Source: Escherichia phage HF4s. From it: a DNA stretch of 39,390 nucleotides. A program made the position numbers and the translations under genes. The stretch lies in sequence record MT833387.1. One strand, given 5' to 3'. The notes beneath the pieces are model-generated. The model was given only the letters and a program-made list of their open reading frames with translations. It was not told the origin of the DNA and made no database searches. Below are positions 1 through 39,390 of this stretch, one piece after another. Within the stretch, counting starts at the first letter, position 1; every line of letters begins with the position of its first letter.

Positions 1-13
1 AAGTGAGATAAAT

Positions 14-436
14 ATGGCGACTGAACCAAAAGCTGGTCGCCCCTCTGATTATATGCCGGAGGTGGCTGACGATATCTGCTCGTTGCTTTCTTCTGGCGAA
101 AGTTTGCTGAAAGTATGTAAGCGTCCTGGTATGCCGGATAAGTCCACTGTTTTCCGCTGGTTGGCAAAGCATGAGGATTTTCGCGACAAGTACGCGAAGG
201 CAACTGAGGCACGAGCTGATTCTATTTTCGAAGAGATATTCGAAATTGCTGACAATGCGATTCCAGATGCTGCTGAGGTGGCAAAGGCAAGACTTCGCGT
301 TGATACCCGCAAATGGGCGCTGGCCCGAATGAATCCCCGTAAGTATGGCGACAAGGTAACTAACGAGCTTGTCGGTAAGGACGGCGGCGCAATCCAGATT
401 GAAACATCACCGATGAGCACTCTATTCGGAAAATGA
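14..436 (+). CDS. terminase small subunit (Sf6 gp1 / P22 gp3 type)
   Basis: 140-aa ORF opening the morphogenesis block, 4-nt overlap with the large terminase; size and position match Sf6-type TerS. Confidence 0.85.
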   Translation: MATEPKAGRPSDYMPEVADDICSLLSSGESLLKVCKRPGMPDKSTVFRWLAKHEDFRDKYAKATEARADSIFEEIFEIADNAIPDAAEVAKARLRVDTRKWALARMNPRKYGDKVTNELVGKDGGAIQIETSPMSTLFGK

Positions 437-1845
437 CCTCGATTAATCCTATCTTTGAACCGTTCATTAAGGCGCATCGCTACAAAGTCGCCAAAGGCGG
501 TCGAGGTAGCGGTAAATCATGGGCAATTGCGAGGCTGCTTGTTGAAGCGGCGCGTCGGCAGCCGGTGCGTATTCTCTGCGCTCGTGAACTGCAAAACAGT
601 ATCAGCGATTCGGTAATCCGGTTGCTTGAAGACACCATAGAGCGGGAAGGGTATTCGGCCGAGTTTGAAATTCAGCGTTCCATGATTCGTCATCTCGGAA
701 CTAATGCTGAGTTCATGTTCTACGGCATCAAAAACAACCCGACAAAGATTAAATCGCTCGAAGGTATTGATATCTGCTGGGTGGAGGAAGCGGAAGCGGT
801 AACGAAGGAATCGTGGGATATTCTGATACCAACCATCCGTAAGCCGTTCTCTGAAATATGGGTAAGCTTCAACCCGAAAAACATCCTCGACGATACCTAT
901 CAGCGATTCGTCGTAAACCCTCCTGATGATATTTGTCTGCTGACGGTGAACTACACCGACAACCCGCACTTTCCTGAAGTTCTCCGTCTGGAGATGGAAG
1001 AGTGTAAACGCAGAAATCCGACACTGTATCGTCACATCTGGCTTGGTGAGCCAGTAAGCGCAAGTGATATGGCAATCATCAAACGTGAATGGCTTGAAGC
1101 CGCAACCGATGCGCACAAGAAACTCGGATGGAAAGCGAAAGGCGCTGTTGTCTCTGCGCATGACCCATCAGATACAGGGCCAGATGCTAAAGGTTATGCA
1201 TCGCGTCACGGTTCGGTAGTTAAGCGCATTGCCGAAGGTCTGCTGATGGACATCAATGAAGGTGCTGACTGGGCTACTTCGCTGGCAATTGAAGACGGCG
1301 CTGACCATTACCTGTGGGATGGTGATGGCGTCGGTGCGGGCCTACGCCGACAGACAACGGAAGCGTTCTCCGGCAAGAAAATCACCGCCACGATGTTCAA
1401 GGGTAGCGAATCGCCATTCGATGAAGATGCATCGTACCAGGCCGGAGCATGGGCTGATGAAGTCGTACAGGGTGACAACGTTCGCACTATTGGCGATGTG
1501 TTCCGCAATAAGCGAGCGCAATTCTATTACGCGCTGGCTGACAGGCTGTATCTGACATATCGGTCGGTTGTCCACGGTGAGTATGCAGACCCCGACGACA
1601 TGCTGAGTTTCGACAAAGAAGCGATAGGCGAGAAGATGCTGGAGAAGCTGTTTGCAGAACTGACGCAGATTCAGCGCAAATTCAATAACAACGGGAAGCT
1701 GGAGCTAATGACTAAGGTCGAAATGAAGCAGAAGCTCGGTATTCCATCTCCTAACCTGGCTGATGCGCTGATGATGTGTATGCATTGCCCGGCATTGGTC
1801 CGCGAAGAAACAGAAATATACGTTCCCTCATCCTCCGGTTGGTAA
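433..1845 (+). CDS. terminase large subunit
   Basis: 470 aa; N-terminal Walker A (GGRGSGKS) ATPase followed by nuclease-like C-terminal half; position after TerS. Confidence 0.93.
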   Translation: MTSINPIFEPFIKAHRYKVAKGGRGSGKSWAIARLLVEAARRQPVRILCARELQNSISDSVIRLLEDTIEREGYSAEFEIQRSMIRHLGTNAEFMFYGIKNNPTKIKSLEGIDICWVEEAEAVTKESWDILIPTIRKPFSEIWVSFNPKNILDDTYQRFVVNPPDDICLLTVNYTDNPHFPEVLRLEMEECKRRNPTLYRHIWLGEPVSASDMAIIKREWLEAATDAHKKLGWKAKGAVVSAHDPSDTGPDAKGYASRHGSVVKRIAEGLLMDINEGADWATSLAIEDGADHYLWDGDGVGAGLRRQTTEAFSGKKITATMFKGSESPFDEDASYQAGAWADEVVQGDNVRTIGDVFRNKRAQFYYALADRLYLTYRSVVHGEYADPDDMLSFDKEAIGEKMLEKLFAELTQIQRKFNNNGKLELMTKVEMKQKLGIPSPNLADALMMCMHCPALVREETEIYVPSSSGW

Positions 1846-1847
1846 AC

Positions 1848-3973
1848 ATGGCAGAGACATTAGAGAAAAACATGAGCGGATCATGCTCAGGTTTGACCGC
1901 GCCTATTCTCCACAGAAGGAAGTGCGCGAAAAGTGCATTGAAGCTACGAGGTTTGCTCGTGTCCCCGGAGGTCAATGGGAAGGAGCAACGGCGGCTGGAA
2001 CTAAGCTTGATGAGCAGTTAGAGAAGTATCCTAAGTTTGAAATCAATAAGGTAGCAACTGAACTTAACCGCATCATTGCAGAATACCGCAATAACAGAAT
2101 CACTGTTAAGTTTCGTCCTGGTGACAGAGAGGCAAGCGAAGAGTTAGCCAATAAATTAAATGGTCTGTTCCGTGCTGACTACGAAGAAACTGATGGCGGT
2201 GAGGCTTGTGATAATGCATTTGACGACGCTGCTACTGGTGGTTTCGGTTGCTTCCGTTTGACGTCGATGCTGGTCAATGAATACGACCCCATGGACGATC
2301 GTCAGCGTATTGCTATTGAACCAATATACGACCCGTCGCGCTCTGTGTGGTTTGACCCTGACGCTAAGAAGTACGACAAATCTGACGCGTTGTGGGCGTT
2401 CTGCATGTATTCGTTGTCACCTGAAAAATATGAGGCTGAATACGGAAAGAAACCTCCTGCTTCTCTGGATGTAACGTCTATGACCAGTTGGGAATATGAC
2501 TGGTTTGATGAAGATGTTATTTACATAGCGAAGTATTACGAAGTTCGTAAAGAGTCTGTTGACGTCATCAGTTATCGACATCCAATCACTGGAGAGATTG
2601 CAACATACGACAGTGATCAGGTTGAAGATATTGAAGATGAACTGGCAATAGCTGGATTTCATGAAGTGGCAAGGCGCTCAGTGAAGCGCCGTCGTGTGTA
2701 TGTATCCGTAGTGGATGGTGATGGTTTCCTTGAGAAACCTCGACGTATTCCTGGTGAACATATCCCCCTCATCCCGGTTTATGGAAAACGCTGGTTCATT
2801 GATGACATTGAGCGTGTCGAAGGGCACATTGCAAAAGCAATGGATCCACAACGTTTGTACAACCTTCAGGTTTCAATGCTGGCTGATACTGCAGCGCAAG
2901 ACCCCGGTCAGATCCCTATAGTTGGCATGGAGCAAATTCGTGGACTTGAGAAGCACTGGGAGGCTCGCAACAAGAAACGCCCAGCGTTCTTGCCGTTGCG
3001 CGAAGTGAGAGATAAATCTGGCAACATTATCGCTGGAGCTACCCCTGCAGGATATACACAGCCTGCGGTTATGAATCAGGCATTGGCTGCATTACTACAG
3101 CAAACCAGTGCAGATATTCAGGAGGTTACAGGCGGCAGTCAGGCCATGCAGCAGATGCCAAGTAATATTGCTCAGGAAACGGTTAACAACTTGATGAACA
3201 GAGCAGATATGGCTTCGTTTATCTATCTGGACAATATGGCGAAAAGTCTTAAACGCGCTGGTGAAGTATGGCTGTCAATGGCGCGTGAAGTGTACGGTTC
3301 AGAACGTGAAGTGCGCATCGTTAACGAAGATGGAAGTGATGATATCGCTGTCCTGAGCGCACAGGTTGTTGACAGGCAAACAGGGGCTGTTGTTGCGTTA
3401 AATGACCTTTCTGTCGGTCGATACGATGTGACGGTTGATGTTGGACCAAGCTACACAGCACGACGTGATGCAACGGTTTCTGTACTGACAAATGTCCTTA
3501 GCTCTATGCTTCCAACAGACCCAATGCGCCCGGCAATTCAGGGTATTATTCTGGACAATATCGATGGCGAAGGCCTTGATGACTTCAAAGAGTACAACCG
3601 AAACCAACTGCTGATATCTGGTATTGCAAAACCACGCAATGAGAAAGAGAAGCAGATTGTTCAACAGGCGCAAATGGCAGCACAAAGCCAGCCAAATCCT
3701 GAAATGGTTCTCGCTCAGGCGCAAATGGTAGCAGCGCAGGCAGAAGCGCAAAAAGCAACTAACGAAACTGCTCAAACTCAAATCAAAGCATTTACTGCCC
3801 AGCAGGATGCGATGGAGAGTCAGGCAAACACTGTCTATAAACTGGCTCAAGCCAGAAACATCGATGACAAAGCAGTGATGGAGGCAATACGCCTTCTGAA
3901 AGATGTCGCCGAGTCACAACAACAGCAATTCCAGTCACCACCACAGTCACCGGCAGACTTAATGCCGAGTTAA
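1848..3973 (+). CDS. portal protein (P22 gp1 / Sf6 gp3 type), N-terminus disrupted by apparent frameshift
   Basis: Longest intact ORF is 1883..3973 (696 aa), with an N-terminal region aligning to P22 portal. An ATG at 1848 with MAETLEKN lies 3 nt after the terL stop in another frame; restoring one A in the A5 run 1866-1870 gives MAETLEKKHERIMLRFD, co-linear with the P22 portal N-terminus. Confidence 0.85.
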
Positions 3974-3986
3974 CCAGGAGTAATCA

Positions 3987-4870
3987 ATGGAAAACGAACT
4001 GATCATCGACGGTCAGGTTATTGACCTGTCTGAAACACAGGAAAATGCAGAAGAAACCATCATCCAAACAGAGTCACAGCCTGAGAATGAAAGCCAGGAT
4101 GACAACGGAAAAGAGATGGCAACTGATCCTGAAAAACCGAAGAGACACCAGAAGATTACGCCTTGCGTATTGGTGATGAAGAAATTCAGCTTAACGCTGA
4201 CGATGATGATCACATTGACGGGCAACCTGCACCGCAATGGGTGAAAGATCTTCGCAAAGGCTTCAAAGAAACACAGAAAGAAAACCGTGAGTTGCGCCGC
4301 CAGCTTGAGGAAGCATTAGCCAAGCCTGCGGAACATCAGCAACCACAACCAGACGCTATTCCACCAAAACCGACTCTTGAGTCGTGTGATTATGACGAAC
4401 AGGCGTTTGAACAGGCATTGACTGATTGGCATGAGAAAAAAGGCCGTGTCGAACAGCAGCAGCAACAAAAACTACGTCAGCAACAGGAATACCAACAGCG
4501 TTTCCAGCAAAGGGTAGAAGCGCATAAACAACGGGCAGCCAAACTTCCTGTGAAAGATTATCAGGAAATGGAGGCCATTGTTCTTAGTGAGCTACCACCA
4601 ATTCAGCAGGAAATCATCATTCACTGTGCAGACGAAGGCTCTGAACTACTCGCCTATGGCTTAGGTAAGAGCCAGCAATTACGCCAGCGTGTAGCCGCTG
4701 AGACAGATCCAATTCGCGCAGCATTCCTCTTGGGGCAGATTAGCAAACAGGTAAGCCTTGCTCCAAAACCAAAGAAAGCCATCAAGCCAGAGCCGGAAGT
4801 ACGTGGTGGCGGTGCTGATGCGAAACAAGACGAATTCAACAAATTATGCCCCGGCGCAAAAATCGAATAA
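3987..4870 (+). CDS. scaffolding protein (P22 gp8-like), split by apparent frameshift
   Basis: Two overlapping ORFs (3987..4244 and 4163..4870 with a TTG start) between portal and coat; acidic N-terminus and charged helical C-terminus typical of scaffold; frame change at the A5 run 4132-4136. Confidence 0.7.
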
Positions 4871-4881
4871 GGAAAAGATAA

Positions 4882-6153: not shown

Positions 6154-6159
6154 TAACAA

Positions 6160-6838: not shown

Positions 6839-6846
6839 GTGAATAA

Positions 6847-11514: not shown

Positions 11515-13511
11515 TGGCTAAAGCATGGAAAGATGTTATCGCCTCTCCACAGTATCAGGCGTTAGCACCAGAACAAAAAGCGCAGGCTCAGGAGCAATAC
11601 TTCAATGAAGTCGTTGCTCCGCAAGCCGGAGAAAATGCAGAGCAGGCTAAGCAAGCTTTCTATGCTGCCTATCCATTGCCATCTGTGCAGCCAGTGGAGA
11701 CACAGCAACCAGTAGCACAGCAACAACCACAGCAAAGTGGATTCATGTCTGATCTTGGCGAAGCAGTAAAAGAGACTGGTCGCGGAATGGTGCAGGCTGG
11801 CGTGAACGTGGCAAACATACCTGCATCAGTTGCCGATGCTGTAATAAGCGCGGCGGCTTGGGCTGGCGGTAAACTCGGCATTGGCGATGGTACATATCAC
11901 CCAGCGCCACGAGTAACAACGCAGGGATTAGAGCAGGACTTTGGCCTTCAGCAAGGCGCGCTGACTCCACAAACGACAGAGGGCAGGGTGTTTGCTGAAG
12001 CATTGCCTTACCTCACTCCTGCTGGCGTTGAGAGAGCGGCAGCACAGGCACCAACACTTGCTGGTCGAATTGCTCAGGGGGCAACTCGCCTTCTAGCAGA
12101 AAACGCAGTTGGATCACTTGCTGCAAATAGTGCGAAAGATGATGCGGAAGCACTCGCCACCGATTTAGGCGTTGGTGTGCTGGCTGGCGGTGCTATTAAC
12201 GCTGCCGGACGTGGATTAGGTGCTGCTTATCGTGGCGTTCGTGGTGCTATTGCGCCAGAAGCGCAGCAGGCTATCAGATTTGCAGAGCGTGAAGGAGTTC
12301 CTCTGCACACCACAGACCTGTTACAGCCTACTTCCCGGGTCGGAAAAATGGCGCAGACTACAGCAGAAAATATCCCTCTGGCTGGCACAAGCGGAATGAG
12401 AGCAACGCAACAGGAAGCGAGAAGCCAGTTGGTGCAGAGATTTGCTGATAAATTCGGCGAGTACGATCCGGCAGTTGTTATTGACAGCCTTAAAGCGAAA
12501 ACATCAGGAATTCGTCGTGCTGCAGGGAGCCGTCTTGAGCAGGTTCAGAATGCAATGGCGGGAGTCAATATACAGCCTGCGCGAGCAATTCAGCAGATTG
12601 ATACTGAGATATCTAATCTGCAGAAGCTTGGTAAGGTAGCTGATAACGAGACAATTTCAAAACTTCAGTCATATCGTGATGAGCTTGTTCGTAATGCTGG
12701 CCCTGATGGTCCGGTAAATCTGGATTTGAAGCAATTAAGCGACCTGCGCAGCCAGTTCAGAATGGACGTGAAGGGTGAGCGACCAGTGTTACCAAACCGT
12801 TCCGATGCCGCCATTCAGCGCGTTTACAAGGCAATGACTGACGATATCAATGGTGCCATTGGTCAGAATCTTGGCAACGATACTCTCCGTAAATATCAGC
12901 AGGCCAATGCCGTCTACGCTGACGAAGCGGCGAAACTAAAGAATACCAGGCTGAAGAATGTTCTCATGAAAGGCGACCTGACGCCTGAGGTCGTAAACAA
13001 CATGCTTTTCAGTAAGAACAAGTCTGAGGTGCAGAACCTCTACAACTCTGTCGGCCAAGTAGGTCGGTCTCAGATGCGTAACGGCATTATCGGCAAGGCG
13101 ATGGAAAAATCAGGTGGCTCACCTGACCAGTTCCTGCGACAGGTTAACCTGATGTCTAACCAGACTGGAATCGCGTTTAAAGGTCGTGATGCTGCTTATC
13201 TGAAAGGGCTGAAGAACTACCTGGAGTCAACGAAGCGAGCAGGACAAGCAGGAGTAACAACGCCAACCGGCCAGCAGGCTATCCCGTTCATTATGGGAAT
13301 TGGCACTGTAACTAACCCAGCATTATTAGGGGTTGGAGGTGGATATGGCTTACTTGCAAGAATGTATGAGAGCGAACCAGCACGTAATGCGATGCTTCGC
13401 CTGGCAAATACCCCTAGAGGGTCTACCGTCTTCGAGAAAGCGTTATCTGACGTCGAGCGCATTGTTAATTCATTCGCTCAGGGCGCGAAGTCTGAGGCAT
13501 TAAGTGAATAG
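11514..13511 (+). CDS. ejection protein, P22 gp16-like
   Basis: 665 aa in the gp16 position; Gly/Ala-rich segments. Confidence 0.75.
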   Translation: MAKAWKDVIASPQYQALAPEQKAQAQEQYFNEVVAPQAGENAEQAKQAFYAAYPLPSVQPVETQQPVAQQQPQQSGFMSDLGEAVKETGRGMVQAGVNVANIPASVADAVISAAAWAGGKLGIGDGTYHPAPRVTTQGLEQDFGLQQGALTPQTTEGRVFAEALPYLTPAGVERAAAQAPTLAGRIAQGATRLLAENAVGSLAANSAKDDAEALATDLGVGVLAGGAINAAGRGLGAAYRGVRGAIAPEAQQAIRFAEREGVPLHTTDLLQPTSRVGKMAQTTAENIPLAGTSGMRATQQEARSQLVQRFADKFGEYDPAVVIDSLKAKTSGIRRAAGSRLEQVQNAMAGVNIQPARAIQQIDTEISNLQKLGKVADNETISKLQSYRDELVRNAGPDGPVNLDLKQLSDLRSQFRMDVKGERPVLPNRSDAAIQRVYKAMTDDINGAIGQNLGNDTLRKYQQANAVYADEAAKLKNTRLKNVLMKGDLTPEVVNNMLFSKNKSEVQNLYNSVGQVGRSQMRNGIIGKAMEKSGGSPDQFLRQVNLMSNQTGIAFKGRDAAYLKGLKNYLESTKRAGQAGVTTPTGQQAIPFIMGIGTVTNPALLGVGGGYGLLARMYESEPARNAMLRLANTPRGSTVFEKALSDVERIVNSFAQGAKSEALSE

Positions 13512-13620
13512 GGCGACGCCAACACATATTCCGAAAATTAAGAAAGCAAAGTTCAACAAGTTTCGTTCCATAAACCCTCCACTCTTTTAACCAATTATAA
13601 CCGACCTTAACGCAACGCTG

Positions 13621-13646
13621 CGCAAGTTTTAGCTTGTGCGGTTTTG
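13621..13646 (+). terminator. imperfect hairpin plus U-tract upstream of tailspike
   Basis: CGCAAG-ttttag-CTTGTGCG followed by GTTTTG in the 155-bp gap between gp16 and tailspike. Confidence 0.3.
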
Positions 13647-13666
13647 CTGCGCCAGGAGCACAGTAA

Positions 13667-16042
13667 ATGTCAGATATCACAACAAATGCTGTTGTCGTAA
13701 ACCCACGCCCTATTTTCACCGACTCAAGAACGTTCCGAGCAGTTGCTAATGGTAAAATCTACGTAGGGAAAATAGACACCGACCCAACCATTCCATCAAA
13801 CCAGATCCCGGTCTACCTTGAAAATGAGAATGGTGACAAGGTTCAAATCCCTCAACCACTCATCGTAAATAACGCTGGCAAGATTGTTTACAACGGACAG
13901 TTAGCAAAGGTCGTAACGGTAAACGGTTATAGCATTGCCGTATATGACGCCTACGGTTCTCAAGTTGACTATATCCCAAACGTCCTTGGGTACGATCCAG
14001 ATAGCTTCAAAGACCAATTAGCTGGCCCAGACGGAGCATCGTTAATTGGTTATGGCAATGGAACGGTTGCAGATAAGCTTGATGAGCTTAAGACGCCATT
14101 TGACTTCGGCGCTAAAGGGGATGGAGTAACTGACGACACGCTGGCATTACAAGCATACATTGATGGTGTAGATGGCGACATTGACTTATACGGAAAAACT
14201 TATCTAGTTAGCAAAAACCCAGCACTTGCAACTACCTATCCAACGGAACCTGATTTAGCCAACAATGGATACAACTTCTGCCCGTGTCTCGCTATAGTTA
14301 ATAAAACCAATAAGAGAATCTTTAACGGCACACTCGTCAGCAAGGTATTTGGTCAGTCTGTTCTGTCTATCATCAACAGCACAGGAATAGAAGTTAACCT
14401 TAAAATTGTTGGGTTTGGTAAGTTTCCTGCCATTGACCACCCTAGTGGATATGCGGAAAAAGGATATTCAACTGGGGGCTACAATACGATTGATGGAGGC
14501 CTTCTTCTTGGCCCAAACAATTCAATCCCCACCTCCAGCTATACGCTAGGAAAGTACAATGGGGTATCAGGTCAGTTCCCAATATACGATGCCTCATGTA
14601 ACCCTACAGGTGGATATCAGTCTACTTGGGGTGCATTTGGAGGGGGTTACATTGGTAGCTATGCATGTGCTGTAACTATTCAGCGGGCATGCAAAAATAT
14701 AACACTACGCGGCTGTGAGATATACGGATTCAATGAAGCTGCTGTCGGCATTGGCATAAGATTTATTGTCAGCTCCACTGGATACACCGACTATACAACC
14801 GATGCTGATGTTCCTCGTGGGGTTAACGTCCTGGATTGCTATCTGCATGACTGCTACACAGCAGGAGTGCACGTATGCTCAGGGTACAATATTGTTTATG
14901 ACTCGTTAAGAGTGGAGAACATTGGTCATCCCAATGCAGATGACGCAACAGACACAGACATTAACCCAGGATACGGAGTAACAACATCAAGATTTAGAAA
15001 CATCCGAAACATAACTTGCGTGAATAGTTTCTTCCTAAATTGCAAACGCAAATCTATCGATTTCCATGCAGGCGGGCAATTGATAGTTGATGGAAACTAT
15101 TGCATGAGAACAGGTGTCAATGGCATATATTTTGAGGCGGGATTTGGTTGGGATAATGGATACGAGCCATATAACGTCATTGTTACTAACAATTACATTG
15201 TTACAAGAGCACTAGGCGTGGTTGGCACTGGTGGGATTTCCATGGTAGGAAATGGCTCCGCCCTAGCAGAGTCATACCCGTATCCTTTTTTGAAGTGTAA
15301 CAACAACTATATTGAGGTAAGGGCTGCCAACGGGGTGGGTATTAATAATGGTTACAACAATAACGATTACCACTATGAGGACATAAACATATGTGATAAT
15401 ACGGTTGTATACAAATCTGACACCTACACCCCGGGTCAGTTTGTTGCTATTCGTTGCAACCTAAATACTCCTTCATCTACTACTCTTCCGAAGCAAAACA
15501 TCAAGCTCTGTCGTAACAGCATAAAAATCCTGACAACGCTTGGTAATTACGCATTCGGAACTCCAATAACCATCGGTGGAACTCCTGCTGTTCTTATTGC
15601 AACCGATAATACAGTGGATATGGGGAACGTAGCTAATGGATCAAGTGCATGGTATGCGACAATTACCCCCAACCCAATAACTGACTATTACTTCTCAGGT
15701 AATAAAATACTTAACTACATTAAACCAGCCACTTTAAGACAAGCGGAAGTTATGTTCTATGACAACATAGGATTTACTGCCACAGGAACTTATGTTTCGA
15801 TAGCTATGCAGTGGTTTAGAGGGATATGGACGGTTGATGCAGCTGGTCTCGATTCACTTGCTGGCGCTAAGTCAGTTACCCTTGCATCTGACGGGGTCGG
15901 GATCACTCAGGGAACCCCGATACAACATGGGTCAATATCAGCTGCAATGACAATAAGTTCATCTAATATTGGGTTTACTACCACCGCCGGAACGACATGC
16001 TACGTTGGCGTAAAAATGAAACCTGTTGGTATTAAAGCATAA
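13667..16042 (+). CDS. tailspike protein: P22-type head-binding domain fused to a pectate-lyase-like beta-helix depolymerase domain
   Basis: 791 aa; first ~115 aa closely match the P22 gp9 head-binding domain (NPRPIFT...[16 protein letters not shown]...YDPD); remainder is unrelated to the P22 endorhamnosidase and carries the [13 protein letters not shown] motif of pectate-lyase-fold depolymerases. Confidence 0.9.
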
Positions 16043-16046
16043 ATAT

Positions 16047-16070
16047 GGCGGGGATACCCCCGCCTATTTT
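16047..16070. terminator. bidirectional intrinsic terminator between convergent tailspike and gtrC
   Basis: GGCGGGG-ata-CCCCGCC hairpin flanked by A/T runs on both sides. Confidence 0.6.
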
Positions 16071-17301
16071 ATTTCTGGTATATGTAATCGATACCGTAAT
16101 ATTCTCCAGCAGCTTTAGGGTTATGGAACTTATCAAGGCGATCCCCTAACCTGAAAGTGTTCTTCTCATTATATTTTGGCACTGTAATCACCTTTTCTCC
16201 AGAATGAATGCCTTTCTCTATCATTGCCACTCTGTCCAAGTATTGATTGTTTATATCTATGTAATATGATGACAACATGAAATAATCAACAAGAAATACA
16301 GGCAATAAAGTTAAAAGTAATACTGGCGTATAAAATTTTGAGATTTTCCCCTCAAATGAAGAAATTATCAGCGACAGACTTGCGAGAAGCAAAATAAAAC
16401 CAGTGGTCATAGCCCTTTGCGGATAGTAAGGTGCTGCAAACATAATTACATTCGAGCCGATTGCAAGGGCAAAGAATATAAAGGAGTATTGCATTTTTGT
16501 TTTATCATGCAGCATTGACAATGACGACAAAATAAACATTGATGTCATGATTACGATTATTAGTGCCCCATACTGCACAAGCATTTCAGGCATCCGGTCA
16601 AGCATGTGAAAGTAGATTCTTTCAGTTAAATCTTTTGAATACCATGAACTGAATGAAGGGCCGGAAGCCCTTGCTGCATTCCCAGGTGCCAAAAGCATGG
16701 AGGCAGAACCAACAAGTACAAATGGCAATAGAGCCAAATCTTTTACAGCGAAACGCTTGTTTATGAATGCCAATATACTATGACAAACGATAAATCCCAC
16801 AGAAAGCACCGCCACTGACTCATTCGATGCGCCAGCTAAAAATCCTAACGCAGCTTGTGGTATGGTAAATTTTACACCTTTCATTAAATTATTGCACAAG
16901 AGCATTAGAAGTAATGAAGGTATTAGATAATTAACAAACCCTACAACCCAAAAGGTATTTTGGCCTATGGAAGGGTTAAAAATAAAGAATGAAACCGCTA
17001 TTAAGCAGAATATAGCAGCCCCACCCTGAGCCATTCTCCTAATAACATGCATCAGAAGTATGCTAACTGTCGCGGTAACAGTTGCACTCATCGCATTAGA
17101 TTTAGCAAAAAGGATCATCGGACTAATAAAGTCTACTATGTATCTGCCGCTCCACCCCATATACATTGCAATATGCTTGTCAATGCTAAATCCAAGATTG
17201 CAGAATGCATAATCATCAGATTGCATTGGTGAAAGATAGCTTATTGCCCAAACCATCCCAAAGAAGGCAATATATGCGATAGGGTCTAAATACTTTTTCA
17301 T
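16069..17301 (-). CDS. gtrC: serotype-specific O-antigen glucosyltransferase, GtrC-type polytopic membrane protein
   Basis: 410-aa multi-pass membrane protein immediately downstream of gtrA-gtrB in the same orientation; visibly AT-rich relative to neighbours. Confidence 0.7.
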
Positions 17302-18214
17302 TTTCTTCCCTTCAGCACGTAACGAGGCCTATTCTTAACTTCTACGTAAATCCTGCCAATGTACTCACCGAGCACACCAATTCCTATTAGCTGAATACCG
17401 CCAAGAAAAAGAATAGAAACAAGGAGGGATGGATACCCACGAACCGCATTACCAAAGGCCAGGGTGTCTATAATCATCCACGCGCCGTACATAAACGCAG
17501 CACCGGCAACGAACAGGCCAATATAAGTCCACATGCGCAGTGGGAATGTTGAGAAGCTTGTGATCCCCTCAAGCGCCAGGTTCCATAGCTTCCAGCCGTT
17601 GAATTTGGTGCTTCCAGCCACTCGTTCTGCTCTGGCATACTCCACAACATCGGTACGGCCGCCAACCCAACTCAATACGCCTTTCATGAACAGGTTGCGC
17701 TCAGGCATGAGCTTAATGTTTTCTACCACCTCGCGAGACATTAGCCTGAAATCTCCAACATTTTCCTCGATCTGCGGGTTGCTGATTTTGTTATGCAGCT
17801 TATAGAACCACTCGGCGGTTTTCCTCTTCAGTCTGCCATCAGTTGAGCGGTCAGATCGTTTAGCAAGCACCATGTCAGCACCTGCTAGCCACTTTTCAAT
17901 CAGATGAGGAATGACCTCAATCGGGTCTTGCAGGTCAACATCAATAGGAATAACGGCATCACCTGTTGCATGGTCTAACCCTGCAAACAATGCTGGTTCT
18001 TTACCAAAGTTTCGTGTAAATGACAGCGGAACAACTAGAGGATCTGAAACGGACAGAGCGTTAATGATTGACTCCGTAGCGTCTTTGCTACCATCATTTA
18101 TAAAAACAATTTCCACTTCATATGGCTTCAACTCTTCGAATTCACGTACCGTTTTATAAAAATAGGTATCGCTTCCTCTTCGTTGAAGACAGGAACGACC
18201 AGAGATATCTTCAT
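17298..18214 (-). pseudogene. gtrB: bactoprenol glucosyltransferase GtrB, frameshifted after codon ~19
   Basis: ATG overlapping the gtrA stop encodes the canonical [19 protein letters not shown] and then terminates; the rest of GtrB ([10 protein letters not shown]...) continues in another frame; break at the T5 run (plus-strand A5, 18158-18162). Confidence 0.85.
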
Positions 18215-18573
18215 TTCGCATCCCTAAAGACAATGAACTTTGAATAGACGAAACCGCACACTAGGCTGATGGCGGAGAAGGTGACAAGAGTGACAATTGG
18301 AGGAAGTGCACATTTATCGGCAGCCCATCCAACAGTAGCACTCAGTGTTCCCATGAATCCTACATATAACATGTAGCGCATCGTTGTAGTCGAAGCTTTG
18401 AATGTGAATTTTGCATTCGCGAAGAAGCTAAAGCTCACAGCCACAACGAAACCTGCGAAGTTTGCAAGAGCCTGATTGGTGTGCGCGGCATAGATACATA
18501 CACCAAAAACCACCCAATGTATAAGTGTGTTCAGCACACCAATCGAGGTGTACTTTGCAAATAGCTTTAACAT
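18211..18573 (-). CDS. gtrA: GtrA flippase-like small membrane protein
   Basis: 120-aa hydrophobic protein with stop overlapping the gtrB start (ATGA); typical gtrA size and arrangement. Confidence 0.85.
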
Positions 18574-19900: not shown

Positions 19901-20025
19901 TTTTTACCCGTCATGGAGTGCGGCTGTCAACGATCTGACGCGAACCATTACGAACTGTTAATCTACGGAAGGCTTGATATTCAGGGGATTTTGCGGACTG
20001 GTACGGATGGGAGCGAACTGATAAA

Positions 20026-20040
20026 TGGTGTCCCCTGCAG
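20026..20040. other. candidate attP core (reverse complement of the 3' end of an argW-type tRNA-Arg gene)
   Basis: TGGTGTCCCCTGCAG matches the complement of the tRNA acceptor 3' end, in the 213-bp gap between xis and int, as expected for P4-type integrases. Confidence 0.5.
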
Positions 20041-20314: not shown

Positions 20315-20371
20315 GAGTGCTATCTCCGAATAGGGAATCGAACCTGCAAATCAGGCAATAAAAAACCGCCA

Positions 20372-24271: not shown

Positions 24272-24654
24272 TTAGAAGGGAATTGAATCGTCGTATTCAG
24301 GATGATTTTGATGATTGCTACTTTGTTGCTGTTGGCTGTTTCCTGAAGTTGCAAATCCAATCTTTGCATTCAGTAATTCAAGAGTGATTGATTGACCATT
24401 TTGCCCCTGATAAACATCAACCCTGATGTTTTCTCCGGTAATTTCCACAATGCCACCTTCAACAAGAACACTACGGTAGTAATCCGCTTGCGCTCCTGGC
24501 TTGGCAAATACAACGGCGCTGTAGTTTGTCCATTCTTTCTTTTTGTCTGGCGATCGTAATACTGAACGCCAGCACGGATGTTGAATCCGATATTTTCCCC
24601 GGCCTGAAACTCTCTTGCGGGCTTGTTTAGTCTTACAGTAATCGAATGTGCCAT
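24272..24654 (-). pseudogene. ssb: single-stranded DNA-binding protein, frameshifted
   Basis: N-terminal ~40 codons in one frame; the other frame continues as an OB-fold-like sequence ending in the SSB acidic tail (EYDDSIPF-stop); break at the A5 run (plus-strand T5, 24540-24544). Confidence 0.75.
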
Positions 24655-26789: not shown

Positions 26790-26818
26790 AAAAAAATTGC
26801 CCTCACATCGGAGGGCAA
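26790..26818 (-). terminator. intrinsic terminator (tL1-like)
   Basis: Minus-strand TTGCCCTC-cgatgt-GAGGGCAA hairpin followed by a T7 run. Confidence 0.7.
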
Positions 26819-28096: not shown

Positions 28097-28464
28097 TTAG
28101 TCAGCGAAGGTTAAGACGAGAATTACCTTAATGATGTCTGCTACAACAGACACGGCCATAGATAAACCAAAGACAATCCAAGCCATAGAGATGTCTTCAC
28201 TACCATCGTATAGGGTTCCGTAATCACTGGTGTAAGGCGTAAATGTCGCGCCTTGATACAATAGGTATAAGCTTGATCCATAGAGGATAAATGCAGATAT
28301 CCCTTGTATTGCTATGATCACTAGAATCATGAAACGAGCTGATCTATGCGCCCAAGCCTGGCTTATTTTTCTGATAGAGATTTCGCAATAAAAGCATGCG
28401 CTAAGCCGTAAATTGTCGAGATTGCCAACATCCCAAAAAAGCTTGCTATAGCGGTTCCAACCAT
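28097..28464 (-). CDS. small multi-pass membrane protein in the rexAB position, split by apparent frameshift
   Basis: 33-aa hydrophobic ORF (AAGGGG RBS, 17 nt after the cI stop) and 77-aa two-TM ORF (28097..28330) are separated by an A5 run; adding one A fuses them into one ~122-aa protein with 3-4 predicted TM helices. Confidence 0.6.
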
Positions 28465-30201: not shown

Positions 30202-31149
30202 ATGAGCAATACAGCAAAAATCTACGATTTCAGCGCCGCACACGAGCGCAGGAGCAACAGGATGGAGAACCAGAAAACTGGTTACATTCCGTTGTACCGG
30301 AGCATTCTGAAACAGTCATGGGCGAAAGATGTTTATCTTCGCACCCTGTGGGAAAACCTTCTCCTGAATGCCGCCAGAAAGCCATACAAAGCGAATTTCA
30401 AAGGTCATGAATGGCATCTGCAACCCGGTCAACTGGTTGTGACAGCAGCTGATTTAGGTCTTCAGTTATGCGACAGACATGGCAAGCCAGCAAGCCGTGA
30501 TCAGGTTGAGCGGATGCTTCAGGTTTTTGTGAAAGAGGGGATGATCTCCATTGATGGAGAGAAGCAAAAAGGTCGTGTGATCACCATCACAAATTACCAT
30601 GAATATGCTCAAAAAATGGACAATTTACCCGCACATGAAGCCGCACAAACAACCGCACATGATGCCGCACATGACGAAGCCAGTAATGGCGCGGATTTCA
30701 GCGCACATGCCGCACATGAAAGCGCACATGAAGCCGCACAAATAACCGCACATCATGAACAAGAAGGTATTAACAAGAATATAAATAATACCCCCCTACC
30801 CCCCAATGGGGGAGGCGATGGACAGGTTAAACCTGAACGTCGCAAGGCAGAACGAATCGACTACGAATCCTTCCTGAACGCCTACAACACCGAAGTCGGT
30901 GACAGACTGCCACACGCTGTTGCGGTCAACGAGAAACGCAAACGCCGCCTGAAGAAAATCATCCCGCAACTGAAAACGCCAAACGTGGACGGTTTCAGAG
31001 CGTATGTCAGGGCGTTTGTGCATCAAGCCAAGCCGTTTTACTTCGGAGACAACGACACGGGCTGGACGGCTGATTTTGATTACCTGCTGAGAGAAGACTC
31101 GTTAACGGGAGTTCGGGAAGGGAAGTTTGCAGACAGGGGGATTGCATGA
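30202..31149 (+). CDS. replication initiator (O-like) with internal origin iterons
   Basis: 315 aa; HTH-like N-terminal domain, central His/Ala-rich repeat encoded by DNA iterons, conserved C-terminal domain; coupled to the helicase gene. Confidence 0.8.
30627..30810 (+). repeat. origin of replication: ~7 iterons (GCACATGA core) plus A/T-rich segment
   Basis: Direct repeats CCGCACATGA(A/C/T) at 10-25 bp spacing inside the initiator gene, followed by an A/T-rich stretch and C6-tacc-C6-aat-G5. Confidence 0.7.
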
Positions 31150-32564
31150 GACAGGATATCGAAGCGAGCGTTATCGGTGGCCTGCTGATTGGTGGATTAA
31201 CTCCAACCGCCAGCGACGTTCTGGCAACGCTGGAGCCGGAAGCGTTTTCAATTCCGCTCTACCGGAAAGCCTTCGAGGTTATCCGCAAGCAGGCGAGAAA
31301 CAGAAACCTAATCGACGCGCTGATGGTTGCCGAGGCGTGCGGAGAGGAGCATTTCACGTCAATCCTGATGACCAGTAAGAACTGCCCGAGTGCCGCAAAC
31401 CTGAAGGGATATGCCGGAATGGTCGCGGATAACTATCACCGCCGTCTGGTGCTGGAAATCATGGATGAAATGCGTGAACCAATTCAGAGCGGAACCATCG
31501 ACGCATCGAGTCAGGCGATGGACGAGCTCGTAAAGCGTCTTTCAGCCATCAGAAAGCCCCGTGACGAGGTTAAACCTGTACGGTTAGGGGAAATCATCAC
31601 TGACTACACTGACACGCTTGACAGGCGTCTGAGGAACGGAGAGGAATCAGATACCCTGAAGACCGGAATCGAAGAACTTGACGCTATCACCGGAGGGATG
31701 AACGCAGAAGACCTGGTGATTATCGCCGCTCGTCCTGGTATGGGGAAAACCGAACTGGCTCTGAAGGTTGCCGAAGGCGTGGCAAGCCGCGTTATTCCTG
31801 GTTCTGACGTCCGGCGCGGGGTATTGATTTTCTCAATGGAAATGAGCGCATTGCAGATTGCAGAGCGAAGCATTGCCAACGCCGGGAGGATGTCGGTTAG
31901 CGTACTGCGAAATCCTGCATCGATGGATGACGAAGGCTGGGCGCGTGTTGCTAACGGCATGAGTCAGCTTGCGGATTTGGATGTATGGGTAGTCGATGCA
32001 TCGCGGTTATCGGTCGAAGAAATACGCTCAATCGCAGAACGGCACAAACAGGAAAATCCAAACCTGTCACTCATCATGGCGGATTATCTTGGCCTGATTG
32101 AGAAGCCGAAAGCAGACCGCAACGACCTCGCAATTGCTCACATCTCCGGAAGCCTGAAGGCGATGGCGAAAGACCTGAAAACGCCTGTTATCTCCCTGAG
32201 TCAGCTTTCGCGCGATGTTGAGAAGCGACCAAACAAACGCCCGACAAACGCAGATTTGCGTGATTCAGGAAGCATTGAACAGGACGCAGACTCAATCATC
32301 ATGCTCTATCGGGAAGCGGTATATGACGAGAACAGTAGCGCCGCGCCATTTGCTGAAATCATCGTGACGAAAAACCGTTTTGGCTCACTTGGTACGGTTT
32401 ACCAGCGGTTCTGTAACGGACACTTTGTTGCATGTGACCAGGATGAAGCCAGACAGATTGCACAGCATCAAATGCGCCTGCTGCGCGTGGCAGACGATAT
32501 GCACAAGGGGCGGACGTATGACCATCATACATCAGACGGGACGTATGACCATCTACATCACTGA
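31146..32564 (+). CDS. replicative DNA helicase, DnaB family (P22 gp12-like)
   Basis: 472 aa; Walker [10 protein letters not shown] and DnaB C-terminal motifs. Confidence 0.9.
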
Positions 32565-32574
32565 GCTAATAACA

Positions 32575-32601
32575 GGGGCTATTTACACAGTAGCCCTTTT
32601 T
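32575..32601 (+). terminator. intrinsic terminator (tR2-like)
   Basis: GGGCTA-9 nt loop-TAGCCC followed by TTTTT, directly after the helicase stop. Confidence 0.65.
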
Positions 32602-32628
32602 ATTGGATTAAGAACGAGGGGGATCCTG

Positions 32629-32841
32629 ATGGACACCGTTAACGGAATGTGTTCAGACGCACCGCGTGCCAAAAAATGTAAGTGCGGAAAATCACCGACA
32701 ATATTCGACATGGAGAACGGGTGCCAAATCTACTGCGCTAACCACGCTGTTGTGGCGGCCGCGAATTATCGCAGTGCGGTAACGGAGTGGAATAACCTGA
32801 AATCTGTTAGAGAGGGAAGTCATGAAAAAACTAACCTTTGA
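32629..32841 (+). CDS. small Cys-rich protein (NinA position)
   Basis: 70-aa ORF with CKCG...C..YC motif; overlaps the ninB start. Confidence 0.45.
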   Translation: MDTVNGMCSDAPRAKKCKCGKSPTIFDMENGCQIYCANHAVVAAANYRSAVTEWNNLKSVREGSHEKTNL

Positions 32842-34345: not shown

Positions 34346-34514
34346 CCCATCCCAATCCATTCAATACCAGAAAGAAAGCGTCGAGCGAGCTTTAACGTGC
34401 GCTAACTGCGGTAAGAAGCTGCATGTGCTGGAAGTTCACGTGTGTGAGCACTGCTGCGCAGAACTGATGAGCGATCCGAATAGCTCAATGTACGAGGAAG
34501 AATACGATGGCTAA
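34338..34514 (+). CDS. ninF: NinF
   Basis: 58 aa, [25 protein letters not shown]... as in lambda NinF. Confidence 0.85.
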
Positions 34515-35118: not shown

Positions 35119-35321
35119 CGTTCTCAGTAAAAACCATTCCAGACATGCTCGTTGAAGCATACGGAAACCAGACAGAAGTAGCACGCAGACTGAAATGTAG
35201 TCGCGGCACGGTCAGAAAATACGTTGATGATAAAGACGGGAAAATGCACGCCATCGTCAACGACGTTCTTATGGTTCATCGCGGATGGAGTGAAAGAGAT
35301 GCGCTATTACGAAAGAATTGA
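35115..35321 (+). CDS. ninH: NinH
   Basis: 68 aa, lambda NinH-like ([36 protein letters not shown]...). Confidence 0.85.
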
Positions 35322-35970: not shown

Positions 35971-36479
35971 GAGAACTAAACCTCACCAAAGAGCAGCACG
36001 AGTGGCTGAATGGCTGGCTTGAACTGTGGGGCGCATGGGTTTATTCAGGTCGTCTGGAAAAGCGCATGAGCAGCGTAATAGCGAAGTTCATGGAGAGCGT
36101 AGAGCCGGGAAGAGTTATGACAAGGCCAATGTGCAATGATGATGATGGAATGTTGATTTCTCAGGTCGTCGATTCCGTCATGTACATCGACAAAAAAGCC
36201 TTTGGCATCCTCCTCAGCTACTACGCTCATGGTTCATCTAAGCGAGCAATTGCATCCTACTATCACGCGACTGCAAAGCCACGCAAGATGTGTGGACGTG
36301 GTGGCGAGGGATGGAGAAAACCTTCACTGGCAACCTGTAGAAACGAAATTGACGACATCCTGAAAGCGTCATTATTTGTTTTGTACCAACCAATGCAAAA
36401 TGCTTTCAAAATGCGTAAACGTGTTGAGAAAGTTAAGCATGTTGCTGTTAAAAACCTTGACATGCAATTAGCCATTTAG
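35961..36479 (+). CDS. Q: late-gene antiterminator Q (QuuD / phi21-Q type)
   Basis: 172 aa immediately upstream of the late leader and lysis cassette; shares LxxWGAW and PxCxDDD motifs with DLP12 QuuD-type Q proteins. Confidence 0.65.
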
Positions 36480-36496
36480 CCATAATTAGAGGGTAA

Positions 36497-36537
36497 GCTG
36501 CCGTTAGTGACTCTTAAGTTGCAACGGTGGCTTTTTT
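36497..36537 (+). terminator. tR'-like intrinsic terminator
   Basis: 9-bp stem with two G-U pairs followed by a T6 run, 18 nt after the Q stop. Confidence 0.55.
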
Positions 36538-36541
36538 ATTT

Positions 36542-36616
36542 GGGTCAGTCGTATAAAGGTCATTACGGAAGGCTGTTAACCTTCTTATCGTGGTTCGAGT
36601 CCACGCTGTCCCGCCA
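36542..36616 (+). tRNA. tRNA-Asn (anticodon GUU), phage-encoded
   Basis: Cloverleaf by hand: acceptor GGGTCAG/CTGTCCC (one mismatch), anticodon stem GAAGG/CCTTC with loop CTGTTAA, T-arm CGTGG-TTCGAGT-CCACG, encoded CCA. Confidence 0.55.
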
Positions 36617-36621
36617 AATAT

Positions 36622-36697
36622 GCTGGTTTAGCTCCAATGGTAGAGCAGTCGCCTTGTAAGCGAATGGGTAGCGGTTCAAGTCCGTTAACCAGCACCA
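36622..36697 (+). tRNA. tRNA-Thr (anticodon UGU), phage-encoded
   Basis: Perfect 7-bp acceptor GCTGGTT/AACCAGC, D-arm GCTC-CAATGGTA-GAGC, anticodon loop CTTGTAA, T-arm AGCGG-TTCAAGT-CCGTT, encoded CCA. Confidence 0.6.
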
Positions 36698-36939
36698 TAA
36701 CTGAGCCGTAGCCACTGGCTATCCTGAATTCATCAGTGATAGTTACGCTGCGGCCTTCTACACATGACCTTCGTGAAAGCGGGTGGCATGAGGTTGCGCT
36801 AACAACCTCCTGCCGTTTTGCCCGTGCATATCGGTCACGAACAAATCTGATTACTAAACACAGTAGCCTGGATTTGTTCTATCAGTAATCGACCTTATTC
36901 CTAATTAAATAGAGCAAATCCCCTTATTGGGGGTAAGAC

Positions 36940-37263
36940 ATGAAGATGCCAGAAAAACATGACCTGTTAGCCGCCATTCTCGCGGCAAAGGAACAAGGCA
37001 TCGGGGCAATCCTTGCGTTTGCAATGGCGTACCTTCGCGGCAGATATAATGGCGGTGCGTTTACAAAAACAGTAATCGACGCAACGATGTGCGCCATTAT
37101 CGCCTGGTTCATTCGTGACCTTCTCGACTTCGCCGGACTAAGTAGCAATCTCGCTTATATAACTAGCGTGTTCATCGGCTACATCGGTACTGACTCGATT
37201 GGTTCGCTTATCAAACGCTTCGCTGCTAAAAAAGCCGGAGTAGAAGATGGTGGAAATCAATAA
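36940..37263 (+). CDS. S: holin, lambda S type with dual start
   Basis: 107 aa, essentially identical to lambda S ([22 protein letters not shown]...); upstream stem-loop as in lambda. Confidence 0.95.
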
Positions 37264-37723
37264 TCAACGTAAGGCGTTCCTCGATATGCTGGCGTGGTCA
37301 GAGGGAACTGATAACGGACGTCAGAAAACCAGAAATCATGGTTATGACGTCATTGTAGGCGGAGAGCTATTCACTGATTACTCCGATCATCCTCGCAAAC
37401 TTGTCACGCTAAACCCAAAACTCAAATCAACAGCAGCCGGGCGCTATCAGCTTCTTTCCCGTTGGTGGGATGCCTACCGCAAGCAACTTGGCCTGAAAGA
37501 CTTCTCTCCGAAAAGCCAGGACGCTGTGGCATTGCAGCAGATTAAAGAGCGTGGCGCTCTACCGATGATTGATCGCGGTGATATTCGTCAGGCAATCGAC
37601 CGTTGCAGCAATATATGGGCTTCACTTCCGGGGGCTGGTTATGGTCAGTTCGAGCATAAGGCTGACAGCCTGATTGCAAAATTCAAAGAAGCTGGCGGAA
37701 CAGTCAGAGAGATTGAGGTATGA
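37247..37723 (+). CDS. R: endolysin, lambda R-type lytic transglycosylase
   Basis: 158 aa, near-identical to lambda R. Confidence 0.95.
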
Positions 37724-38157
37724 GCAGAGTAACCGCGATTATCTCCGCTCTGGTTATCTGCATCATCGTCTGTCTGTCATGGGCTGTTAATCACTACCGT
37801 GATAACGCCATCGCCTACAAAGAACAGCGTGATAAGGCCGCATCCATAATCGCTGATATGCAGAAGCGTCAACGTGATGTAGCAGAACTTGACGCCAGAT
37901 ACACAAAGGAGCTTGCTGATGCTAACGCGACTATCGAAAGTCTCCGTGCTGATGTTTCTGCTGGGCGTAAGCGCCTGCAAGTCGCCGCCACCTGTGCAAA
38001 GTCAACGACCGGAGCCAGCGGCATGGGCGATGGAGAAAGCCCAAGACTTACAGCAGATGCTGAACTCAATTATTACCGTCTCCGAAGTGGAATCGACAAG
38101 ATAACCGCGCAGGTTAACTACCTGCAGGAATACATCAGGACGCAATGCCTTCGATGA
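37720..38157 (+). CDS. Rz: spanin inner-membrane subunit Rz
   Basis: 145 aa; N-terminal TM helix identical to lambda Rz, divergent coiled-coil periplasmic part. Confidence 0.9.
37919..38104 (+). CDS. Rz1: spanin outer-membrane lipoprotein Rz1, embedded in Rz (+1 frame)
   Basis: Embedded ORF with signal peptide ending in lipobox-like VSAC followed by a Pro-rich segment. Confidence 0.75.
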
Positions 38158-38331
38158 TAGCGATAATTTTACTCATCATCCTTCACATCTGGCTCTGTAG
38201 ACAGGGTGATGATCACTTCTGGAGTGAATCCAGATTAAACATCTCATTGCTGATGCTTGATATTGAGCATCTTGCGCGCGGTAAGGGGCTGCGTTGAGAT
38301 AAGAGCCAGTCATTACAAATACCAGGATTTA

Positions 38332-38355
38332 GCCTCGCATTCGCGGGGCTTTTTA
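38332..38355 (+). terminator. intrinsic terminator-like hairpin
   Basis: 7-bp stem GCCTCGC/GCGGGGC with ATTC loop followed by TTTTT. Confidence 0.5.
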
Positions 38356-38375
38356 TTGCAACAAAGGTAAAGACG

Positions 38376-38663
38376 ATGGATGAAGAATATCGTAAAGACC
38401 TGCAACTGTGGTTTGGTCTTACGCATGCGCCGTTCTGCGTGATGCCGCGAGTATTCATGGAGGCTATGCCGCCAGAATGGCAAGAGAAGATGGCTCAGTT
38501 GCTTTTTGAGTATAGCGACACAATCAAAACGGATGTCTGCGGAGTTCACAGCTGTTTTGTTACTGCCAAAGACAGCAACAACCGCTTTATGAGGATGCCA
38601 GAAGATATTCTGAACTATCGTCATCCCCGACGTGAATTCATCGAATCAGTTCTGAAGAAGTAG
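38376..38663 (+). CDS. hypothetical lambdoid protein downstream of the lysis cassette
   Basis: 95-aa ORF with upstream AAAGG RBS. Confidence 0.55.
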   Translation: MDEEYRKDLQLWFGLTHAPFCVMPRVFMEAMPPEWQEKMAQLLFEYSDTIKTDVCGVHSCFVTAKDSNNRFMRMPEDILNYRHPRREFIESVLKK

Positions 38664-38909
38664 CCATTACAAAGCCTATCTACTGGTGGGCTTGATAATG
38701 AAACCAGAATTTATTCTTGGCAACCAGTTACGGCAGTACAGCGAAACAACCCAAGCCAGTAAGTGGGGAAATAACACTGGCAGCCACTGAAAGATGAACC
38801 TCCTGCCTTATGGCAAAAAGATTCTTTGTGGTGGCGGACTGATGGAAAGACATCTGTTATTGCAGAGACCATTCAATGAGTGGTCTCGACAATGGCTTAT
38901 ACCCTGCAC

Positions 38910-38935
38910 GGGATATCTTAACTGATATCCCTTTT
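38910..38935 (+). terminator. intrinsic terminator-like hairpin
   Basis: Perfect 8-bp inverted repeat GGGATATC-ttaact-GATATCCC followed by TTTT. Confidence 0.5.
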
Positions 38936-38956
38936 AACGGATAAACGGAGCCAACA

Positions 38957-39199
38957 ATGGCAGAGATTATTCCCATGACTGAAGAACAGAAATTCCAGTT
39001 AGAGATTTACAAGCTGGTAATGAACCAGAACGCAGCCGCAGAGGAAGCATTTCAATTCATCGGCACTGACGAGCTGAAGCTTGAGTTATTCAAAATTCAC
39101 TTCCAGTCAGGCGGCGCTAATTCAGATATCACGACCCGCACAATCGAAGCGGTACGTAAATCGAAGGAAGCGTTAGACCTGTTCACTACCGGAGCATGA
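38957..39199 (+). CDS. hypothetical protein
   Basis: 80-aa ORF upstream of terS. Confidence 0.5.
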   Translation: MAEIIPMTEEQKFQLEIYKLVMNQNAAAEEAFQFIGTDELKLELFKIHFQSGGANSDITTRTIEAVRKSKEALDLFTTGA

Positions 39200-39200
39200 T

Positions 39201-39380
39201 GTGAGCCGCGTAATCAATTTGGGTAAGGAGAAGAAATTTCCAATTACTCAAGAGCTATACGAGCGGCTGGAAAGCGTCATTCATGATTACGATGGTGAAA
39301 TCAGTTTATGCGAGGCGATTGGCACACTCGAATTGCTGAAGCAGTCACTGATTGAAGGCGCGAAAGAGTCCTCAACCTGA
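39201..39380 (+). CDS. hypothetical small protein (GTG start)
   Basis: 59-aa ORF starting at a GTG preceded by GGAG, 1 nt after the previous stop; last gene before terS on the circular map. Confidence 0.4.
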   Translation: MSRVINLGKEKKFPITQELYERLESVIHDYDGEISLCEAIGTLELLKQSLIEGAKESST

Positions 39381-39390
39381 AATGACAATT

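Follow-up and report, generated by a model that had tools for sequence, protein, structure and literature searches.

Single-base deletions at six-base A/T runs in the genome record of Escherichia phage HF4s and their probable technical origin

The frameshifts in the genome record of Escherichia phage HF4s (MT833387.1) are very probably a sequencing or assembly artefact, judging from the record and its relatives. The window, i.e., the whole stretch of 39,390 nt analysed here, would be a complete Sf6-like genome, that of a functional temperate phage (Lederbergvirus) with a gtrABC O-antigen glucosylation module, in which base-calling or consensus errors would have left about one-fifth of the six-base A/T runs one base short. 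In the true genome, all seven runs concerned are most likely A6 or T6, and the portal, scaffold, gtrB, ssb-like, cI-adjacent membrane-protein, and ninA genes are most likely intact.

Shortened runs and the affected genes

The five frameshifts reported in the first-pass annotation are present, and each is a six-base A/T run cut to five. That annotation had proposed a comparison with relatives at these sites, and all fetched relatives have six-base runs there. Four of its positions hold, but the fifth site is at 28366–28370, approximately 31 nt from the position given (28335). Five is an undercount; the record has at least eight deletions of a single base, with sites at 32597–32601, 38815–38819, and 32458 in addition.

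The portal run (A5, 1866–1870, plus strand) covers codons 7 and 8 of the corrected gene at 1848–3973. It is A6 in all six fetched relatives, in 107 of 110 IMG/VR stretches (A5 in the other three), and in 224 complete Escherichia coli genomes, with A5 in one (1/225). The scaffold run (A5, 4132–4136, plus strand) lies at codon 50 of 294 in the gene at 3987–4870; the six fetched relatives all have A6, and A5 occurs in none of 109 IMG/VR stretches and none of 232 complete E. coli genomes. The gtrB gene (17298–18214, minus strand) has A5 on the plus strand (T5 in the coding sense) at 18158–18162, around codon 19, where all relatives have six bases. A contig (L019) that is 99.9% identical to the window over 5.3 kb carries A6 in gtrB, so that a single indel sets the window apart, and the short allele is absent from 512 complete E. 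coli genomes.

The ssb-like gene (24272–24654, minus strand), directly downstream of erf, has T5 on the plus strand at 24540–24544, around codon 38, and T6 is found in five of five relatives. Among the matches listed, the run is T6 in all of at least 120 IMG/VR stretches and, with the loci fetched earlier included, at least 132 T6 and no T5 are counted; complete E. coli genomes give 577 T6 and 2 T5 (2/579). The membrane-protein gene directly downstream of cI (28097–28464, minus strand) has T5 on the plus strand (coding A5) at 28366–28370, at codon 33. Its run is T6 in five of five relatives, T6 in 103 and T5 in none of the IMG/VR stretches, and T5 in 0/144 complete E. coli genomes. Pooled over these five surveyed genes, 3 of the 1692 alleles observed in complete E. 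coli genomes are short. In IMG/VR, four sites are without short alleles among the matches listed, and the portal has 3/110.

Two further runs are affected. The 32-codon ninA gene (32545–32642, plus strand) has T5 at 32597–32601, where all relatives compared have T6 (16, and 23 in another comparison). A conserved unannotated spacer upstream of the DUF2560 gene has A5 at 38815–38819; in relatives, this run is A6 in 36, A7 in 5, and A5 in none. Apart from the rare short alleles given above and the draft assemblies discussed below, neither the close relatives nor the other assemblies compared carry the deletions.

The eighth deletion is in the helicase P gene (ORF 31146–32564, plus strand), where TT at 32458–32459 corresponds to TTT in all relatives (39/39 fetched relatives and 17/17 IMG/VR matches). 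This T3-to-T2 change replaces the last 21 residues of the helicase with a 35-residue out-of-frame tail. As a deletion in a three-base run, it is atypical for long-homopolymer error. The P/ninA junction also carries a private 27-nt imperfect tandem duplication (32518–32544, plus strand) that includes a private extra A at 32527; a search for the duplication junction in IMG/VR and the GTDB representative genomes gave no hits. Four private anomalies are thereby found within 144 nt (32458–32601). The region is probably a poorly resolved spot, in which both the T3-to-T2 deletion and the duplication would be spurious. A natural mosaic joint of two module types was considered for the 27-nt insert and rejected, since every relative with the junction runs on into ninA sequence.

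The distribution of the deletions over run lengths should be noted. Compared with approximately 390 related loci, and counting alignable runs only, 7 of the 32 A/T six-base runs are shortened and 25 are intact, while the corresponding figures for shorter A/T runs are 0/70 for five-base, 0/209 for four-base, and 1/827 for three-base runs. No lengthened runs and no altered G/C runs were found against the same loci. Thus, the private indels are confined to homopolymers and biased toward deletion and toward the longest runs, seven of the eight being A/T six-to-five changes and the eighth the T3-to-T2 change. The loss of bases at approximately one-fifth of the six-base A/T runs suggests a data-quality problem rather than biology. 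The first-pass annotation had spoken of systematic homopolymer under-calls; the under-calls are supported, but the 25 correct six-base runs indicate a stochastic error, and "systematic" is too strong. Private substitutions in the Dam and Dcm motifs (GATC and CCWGG) number 0/51 and show no excess, so that this additional nanopore signature is absent and gives no support either way. Indels at 13295, 20613, 26442, 26790, 34328, 38310, and 38730 were set aside as variation among relatives or as changes compensated at mosaic boundaries, not private frameshifts.

Corrected proteins, genome form, and use of the record

Adding one base per run gives full frames, as the first-pass annotation had claimed, and the resulting proteins match intact homologues at 99–100% identity over their whole length. 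The corrected portal is identical to those of loci L022 and L024 at 708 of 708 residues, and the corrected scaffold to those of L002 and L010 at 294 of 294. Corrected gtrB (305/305 identical) matches Pfam Glycos_transf_2, the ssb-like protein (127/127 identical) ends in DDSIPF, and the membrane protein is identical at 121 of 122 residues (99.2%). The sequence downstream of the lesions is likewise 99–100% identical to that of intact homologues, and neither drift nor the mixed lesions of a defective prophage are found. Nonsense mutations, IS elements, and large deletions were not seen in the real genes of the window, the frameshifts listed above being the only lesions.

The A5 frameshift in the portal gene is real in the record but milder than first described. 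The frame breaks at codon 8; farther on, at 1883 (codon 13), an ATG in the correct frame leaves intact the whole Pfam P22_portal domain, which begins at residue 14. Gene callers select this ATG even in intact (A6) genomes. A 696-aa portal in three Logan assemblies was considered as a set of independent A5 alleles and rejected; all three have A6, and the caller chose the internal ATG. If real, the deletion in the scaffold gene (codon 50 of 294) would be the lethal one. A phage without scaffolding protein is unable to make the particles from which such records normally derive.

The window is a full circle in the attP form, opened at the same point as the Sf6 record, 13 nt ahead of terS, and 25 relatives run without interruption across its end-to-start junction. 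The attP core (20025–20040) is contiguous: homologies of the attR and attL sides of prophages overlap there, phage Sf6 aligns across it without a break, and the attL/attR flanks of an integrated prophage are not found. The int and attP region is intact. The collinear P22/Sf6-type virion module, the Sf6-type terminase, attP and int, and Pfam matches to P22_portal and Phage-scaffold place the phage among the Sf6-like lederbergviruses. Shigella phage Sf6 (NC_005344) and Sf6-like E. coli prophages share with it the gene order, the record start point, the attP core, and the int type, with a DNA identity of approximately 96–97% in the virion genes. In contrast, Sf6 has oac where the window has gtrABC, and the window differs from Sf6 in its 791-aa tailspike, in its immunity region, and in the absence of IS911. 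Of the seven runs, Sf6 aligns only at those in the portal and scaffold genes, and both are A6 in Sf6.

In automatic annotation of this record, the portal, scaffold, gtrB, ssb-like, cI-adjacent membrane-protein, ninA, and helicase genes will come out split or truncated, and a viable serotype-converting phage may be labelled defective. At the listed runs, gene calls should be continued across the frameshift, and the record needs polishing or resequencing. The relevance of the deletions is limited to the use of the record, and no new biology is implied.

Origin of the deletions

We infer a technical cause for the deletions from their pattern, their restriction to this record, the form of the genome, and the identity of the repaired proteins to intact ones. 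In long-read-only assemblies, wrong homopolymer lengths remain more often than any other kind of error (PMC8812927), and in phage genomes they split genes, while artefactual short repeats arise in assembly (PMC10438801). The window resembles the errors of long-read-only or flow chemistries described there, in that 1-nt homopolymer deletions split intact genes that are mended by one base and that an apparently artefactual short repeat lies nearby; it is affected only at six-base A/T runs and one T3. Drafts of the E. coli O104:H4 outbreak clone provide a direct control. Over 20.3, 6.9, and 3.6 kb, respectively, drafts L405, L406, and L408 match the finished genome L415 without a single mismatch and differ from it only by 1-nt homopolymer deletions, among them those at the portal and scaffold runs in question. 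In L406, an Ion Torrent-like draft, four- and five-base runs are shortened as well, a difference from the window.

The first-pass annotation gave two readings, artefact or decay, without choosing between them. Its decaying, non-inducible prophage is not supported by the attP circle, the absence of other gene damage, the identity of the repaired proteins, and the private alleles. A reading in which the deletions are real, the phage having been recently inactivated, e.g., as a prophage passing through a mismatch-repair-deficient host, so that it excises and circularises but makes no heads, is unlikely. Replication slippage likewise prefers the longest runs, as in seven of the eight events here, the intact int and attP would allow a circular form to exist without particles, and rare short alleles do occur in finished genomes, as noted for the portal and ssb-like genes. 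However, all eight deletions are private to MT833387.1, neither run expansions nor other lesion types accompany them, and the broken genes are free of amino-acid drift. Moreover, coding and non-coding six-base runs are shortened at equal rate (6/27 and 1/5, respectively), though run-length variation among relatives is mainly in non-coding runs; essential and non-coding runs are affected alike while the repaired products match functional ones, suggesting that the deletions are blind to selection. The record is also laid out in virion-type fashion from terS, and the portal and scaffold deletions recur as clear artefacts in the O104:H4 drafts.

Truly decayed relatives look different. The prophage of E. 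coli BA22372 shares the portal A5 with the window and is the one finished-genome portal A5 case inspected; it is grossly deleted, with large deletions and several lesion types. Both this prophage and an IS1-carrying prophage of O104:H4 are integrated, are damaged by large deletions or by IS insertions, and contain several genes annotated as partial or frameshifted, whereas the window shows neither the integration nor the large deletions nor the IS insertions. A more specific form of real deletion is less probable still: a multiply frameshifted Sf6-like element in which a mutator host had caused a burst of slippage at A/T runs and which persists as an excised circle or a satellite-like passenger, with the portal A-run perhaps a tolerated slippage site backed by the internal start.

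It is quite improbable that most sites are artefacts and the portal A5 alone is real and tolerated, translation starting at ATG 1883 to give a portal without its 12 N-terminal residues. The domain boundary at residue 14 and the preference of gene callers for ATG 1883 in A6 genomes would fit such a start, and the portal is the only site with a recurring short allele in IMG/VR among the matches listed. Nevertheless, one of those A5 carriers (L094) also shows an unusual A7 at 38815, a sign that its own sequence contains homopolymer noise; in the O104:H4 drafts the portal A5 is itself artefactual, and A6 is found in 224 of the 225 finished genomes.

Programmed recoding, in which the A runs would let ribosomes shift by −1 or transcription slip and so restore the full-length proteins, is hardly credible: in principle, slipping by −1 on G AAA AAC would regenerate the wild-type portal sequence, and the sites share with dnaX-type frameshifting an A-rich run at the point of frame change, but none of them has the dnaX-type heptamer X XXY YYZ, conserved or otherwise, and the homologues have a single continuous frame with A6 or T6 at every site, so that no two-frame arrangement is conserved. 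Tracts known to support transcriptional slippage are far longer than five bases, and P22 assembly requires hundreds of scaffold protein molecules for each procapsid.

Frameshifted genes and their repaired products

All five single-base frameshifts claimed in the first-pass annotation are present in the sequence, each at a run of five bases where the relatives have six. The runs are A5 (A6 in relatives) in the portal (1866–1870), scaffold (4132–4136), and, read on the plus strand, gtrB (18158–18162) genes, and T5 (T6 in relatives) in the ssb-like gene downstream of erf (24540–24544) and the membrane gene downstream of cI (28366–28370). The last run had been placed near 28335, approximately 31 nt off. 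Addition of one base restores full-length, homologue-like frames, as had been proposed: the portal (708 aa), scaffold (294 aa), GtrB (305 aa), and ssb-like (127 aa) products are then 100% identical to intact homologues, and the membrane protein (122 aa) is 99.2% identical. The repaired portal, scaffold, and GtrB are matched by Pfam, and a Pfam search with the 127-aa protein (24272–24654, minus strand) gave no match. Its relatives are annotated as hypothetical, but the ssb label is supported by its C-terminal end, DDSIPF, which resembles the C-terminal tip of bacterial SSB.

The severity of the portal and scaffold lesions should be noted. The portal lesion, if real, would be the mildest of the frameshifts, as it lies in codon 8 and an in-frame ATG at codon 13 retains the entire Pfam domain. 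A 696-aa portal starting from this ATG is annotated even in loci with an intact A6 (L022, L023, L024, and L413, at window positions 1848–1885); the portal start is therefore annotated inconsistently in this phage group, with or without the frameshift. The scaffold lesion, in codon 50, would be lethal if real.

Run lengths in relatives and draft assemblies

The list of five is incomplete. Comparison of run lengths between the window and approximately 390 related loci revealed two further runs shortened from six to five bases, T6 to T5 in ninA (32 codons; 32597–32601) and one in a conserved unannotated stretch (38815–38819), as well as a private T3-to-T2 deletion in the gene of helicase P at 32458. 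Seven of the 32 alignable A/T runs that are six bases long in relatives are shortened, as against 0 of 70 five-base, 0 of 209 four-base, and 1 of 827 three-base runs. No alignable G/C run of any length is shortened, and no alignable run is lengthened. Coding (6/27) and non-coding (1/5) six-base runs are shortened at the same rate; among relatives, run-length variation occurs mainly in non-coding runs. Against a larger set of relatives, the private changes amount to eight 1-nt deletions versus about 51 substitutions in 37 kb.

The A/T runs (6–7 bases) at 20360, 28013, 36532, and 38815, all non-coding, and at 26790, near a gene start, vary naturally from 6 to 9 bases among relatives, and differences there should not be taken for errors.

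Comparison with database relatives, which had been recommended, showed the short alleles to be nearly absent elsewhere. Among complete E. coli genomes they occur in 0/232 (scaffold), 1/225 (portal), 0/512 (gtrB), 2/579 (ssb-like), and 0/144 (membrane gene); in IMG/VR and the loci fetched earlier, the long and short counts are 117 and 0, 116 and 3, 7 and 0, at least 132 and 0 among the matches listed, and 108 and 0, respectively. The sole finished genome with a portal A5 is E. coli BA22372 (L416, NZ_CP040397.1), whose prophage is grossly deleted from portal to needle and has several genes flagged as frameshifted, representing either real decay or another error-prone assembly.

Gene calls in seven other assemblies include exactly the 85-aa scaffold fragment that the window encodes. 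Of these, we compared three drafts of the O104:H4 outbreak clone, L405 (GCA_000220805.2), L406 (SRR254209), and L408 (SRR389194), with the P22-like prophage of the finished E. coli O104:H4 FDAARGOS_349 (L415). No substitutions were found over 20.3, 6.9, and 3.6 kb, respectively, and the sole differences are two to seven 1-nt homopolymer deletions in each draft. The set of deletions differs per draft, and the scaffold and portal A6 runs that are shortened in the window are among those affected. Since these two runs are shortened with zero substitutions, they are recurrent under-call sites in error-prone data.

Origin of the deletions

As a result of the deletion at 32458, helicase P loses its 21 C-terminal residues and ends instead in a 35-residue out-of-frame tail. 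The deletion adjoins another private feature, an imperfect tandem duplication in which 27 nt of the P/ninA junction are repeated ('GACGTATGACCATC' twice) and within which an extra A at 32527 is also private. Together with the shortened ninA run, four private anomalies lie within 144 nt (32458–32601), and none of them, including the duplication, is found in the fetched relatives. In complete E. coli genomes, any full-length match to this stretch is interrupted by a gap of about 27 nt, and the junction sequence was not found in IMG/VR or GTDB representatives. This cluster suggests a poorly resolved spot, which may be where the badly polished ends of the contig originally lay, prior to re-orientation of the genome.

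Systematic under-calls and a decaying, non-inducible prophage had been offered as explanations; under-calls are supported, and a decaying prophage is not, as a protein-level scan with the ORFs of relatives detected neither nonsense mutations nor IS elements nor large deletions in real genes and the record has a virion-type layout. A technical cause fits all of these observations, namely eight private deletion-only events that are biased toward the longest runs and insensitive to selection, the absence of other damage, and the layout. Most probably, the frameshifts do not reflect genuine biology. Among the residual errors of long-read-only assemblies, those in homopolymer length are the most frequent (PMC8812927); in phage genomes they split genes, and assembly also yields artefactual short repeats (PMC10438801). 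A technical cause matches these documented patterns. The Phage Annotation Guide places sequencing or assembly error first in its list of frameshift causes (PMC8785237). That an element still able to circularise underwent a burst of genuine slippage, such as might occur in a mutator host, is improbable, given the otherwise undamaged genome and its virion-type record. Programmed recoding at the runs is not supported, because homologues encode each protein in a single frame. Genes should be read through these sites, and the record should be polished or resequenced.

Phage form and the gtr module

The gene order of the 39,390-nt window is collinear with that of Shigella phage Sf6 and of Sf6-like phages and prophages from E. 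coli; the virion half shares approximately 96–97% DNA identity with them, and the early regions are mosaic. The Sf6 record and the window both begin 13 nt before the small-terminase gene. The last and first 150 nt of the window are directly contiguous in 25 relatives; the window thus represents a complete circle. Prophage homology stops at 20040 for the right end and starts at 20024/20026 for the left end, whereas the Sf6 alignment runs across unbroken. Because the two prophage homologies end where Sf6 aligns across, the window contains attP and is the phage form, not a prophage.

Genes for tRNA-Asn and tRNA-Thr are present. Where Sf6 has oac, the window has gtrA, gtrB, gtrC, and a 791-aa tailspike. 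In the 16069–18573 region, the 410-aa gtrC product is identical to that of E. coli prophages (L012–L017 and L411–L414) that lie at ybhB/bioA and lack an int adjacent to gtrA; the gtrABC-tailspike module therefore occurs in phages with different integration modules. A Logan contig (L019, ERR10376585) is 99.9% identical to 12956–18239.
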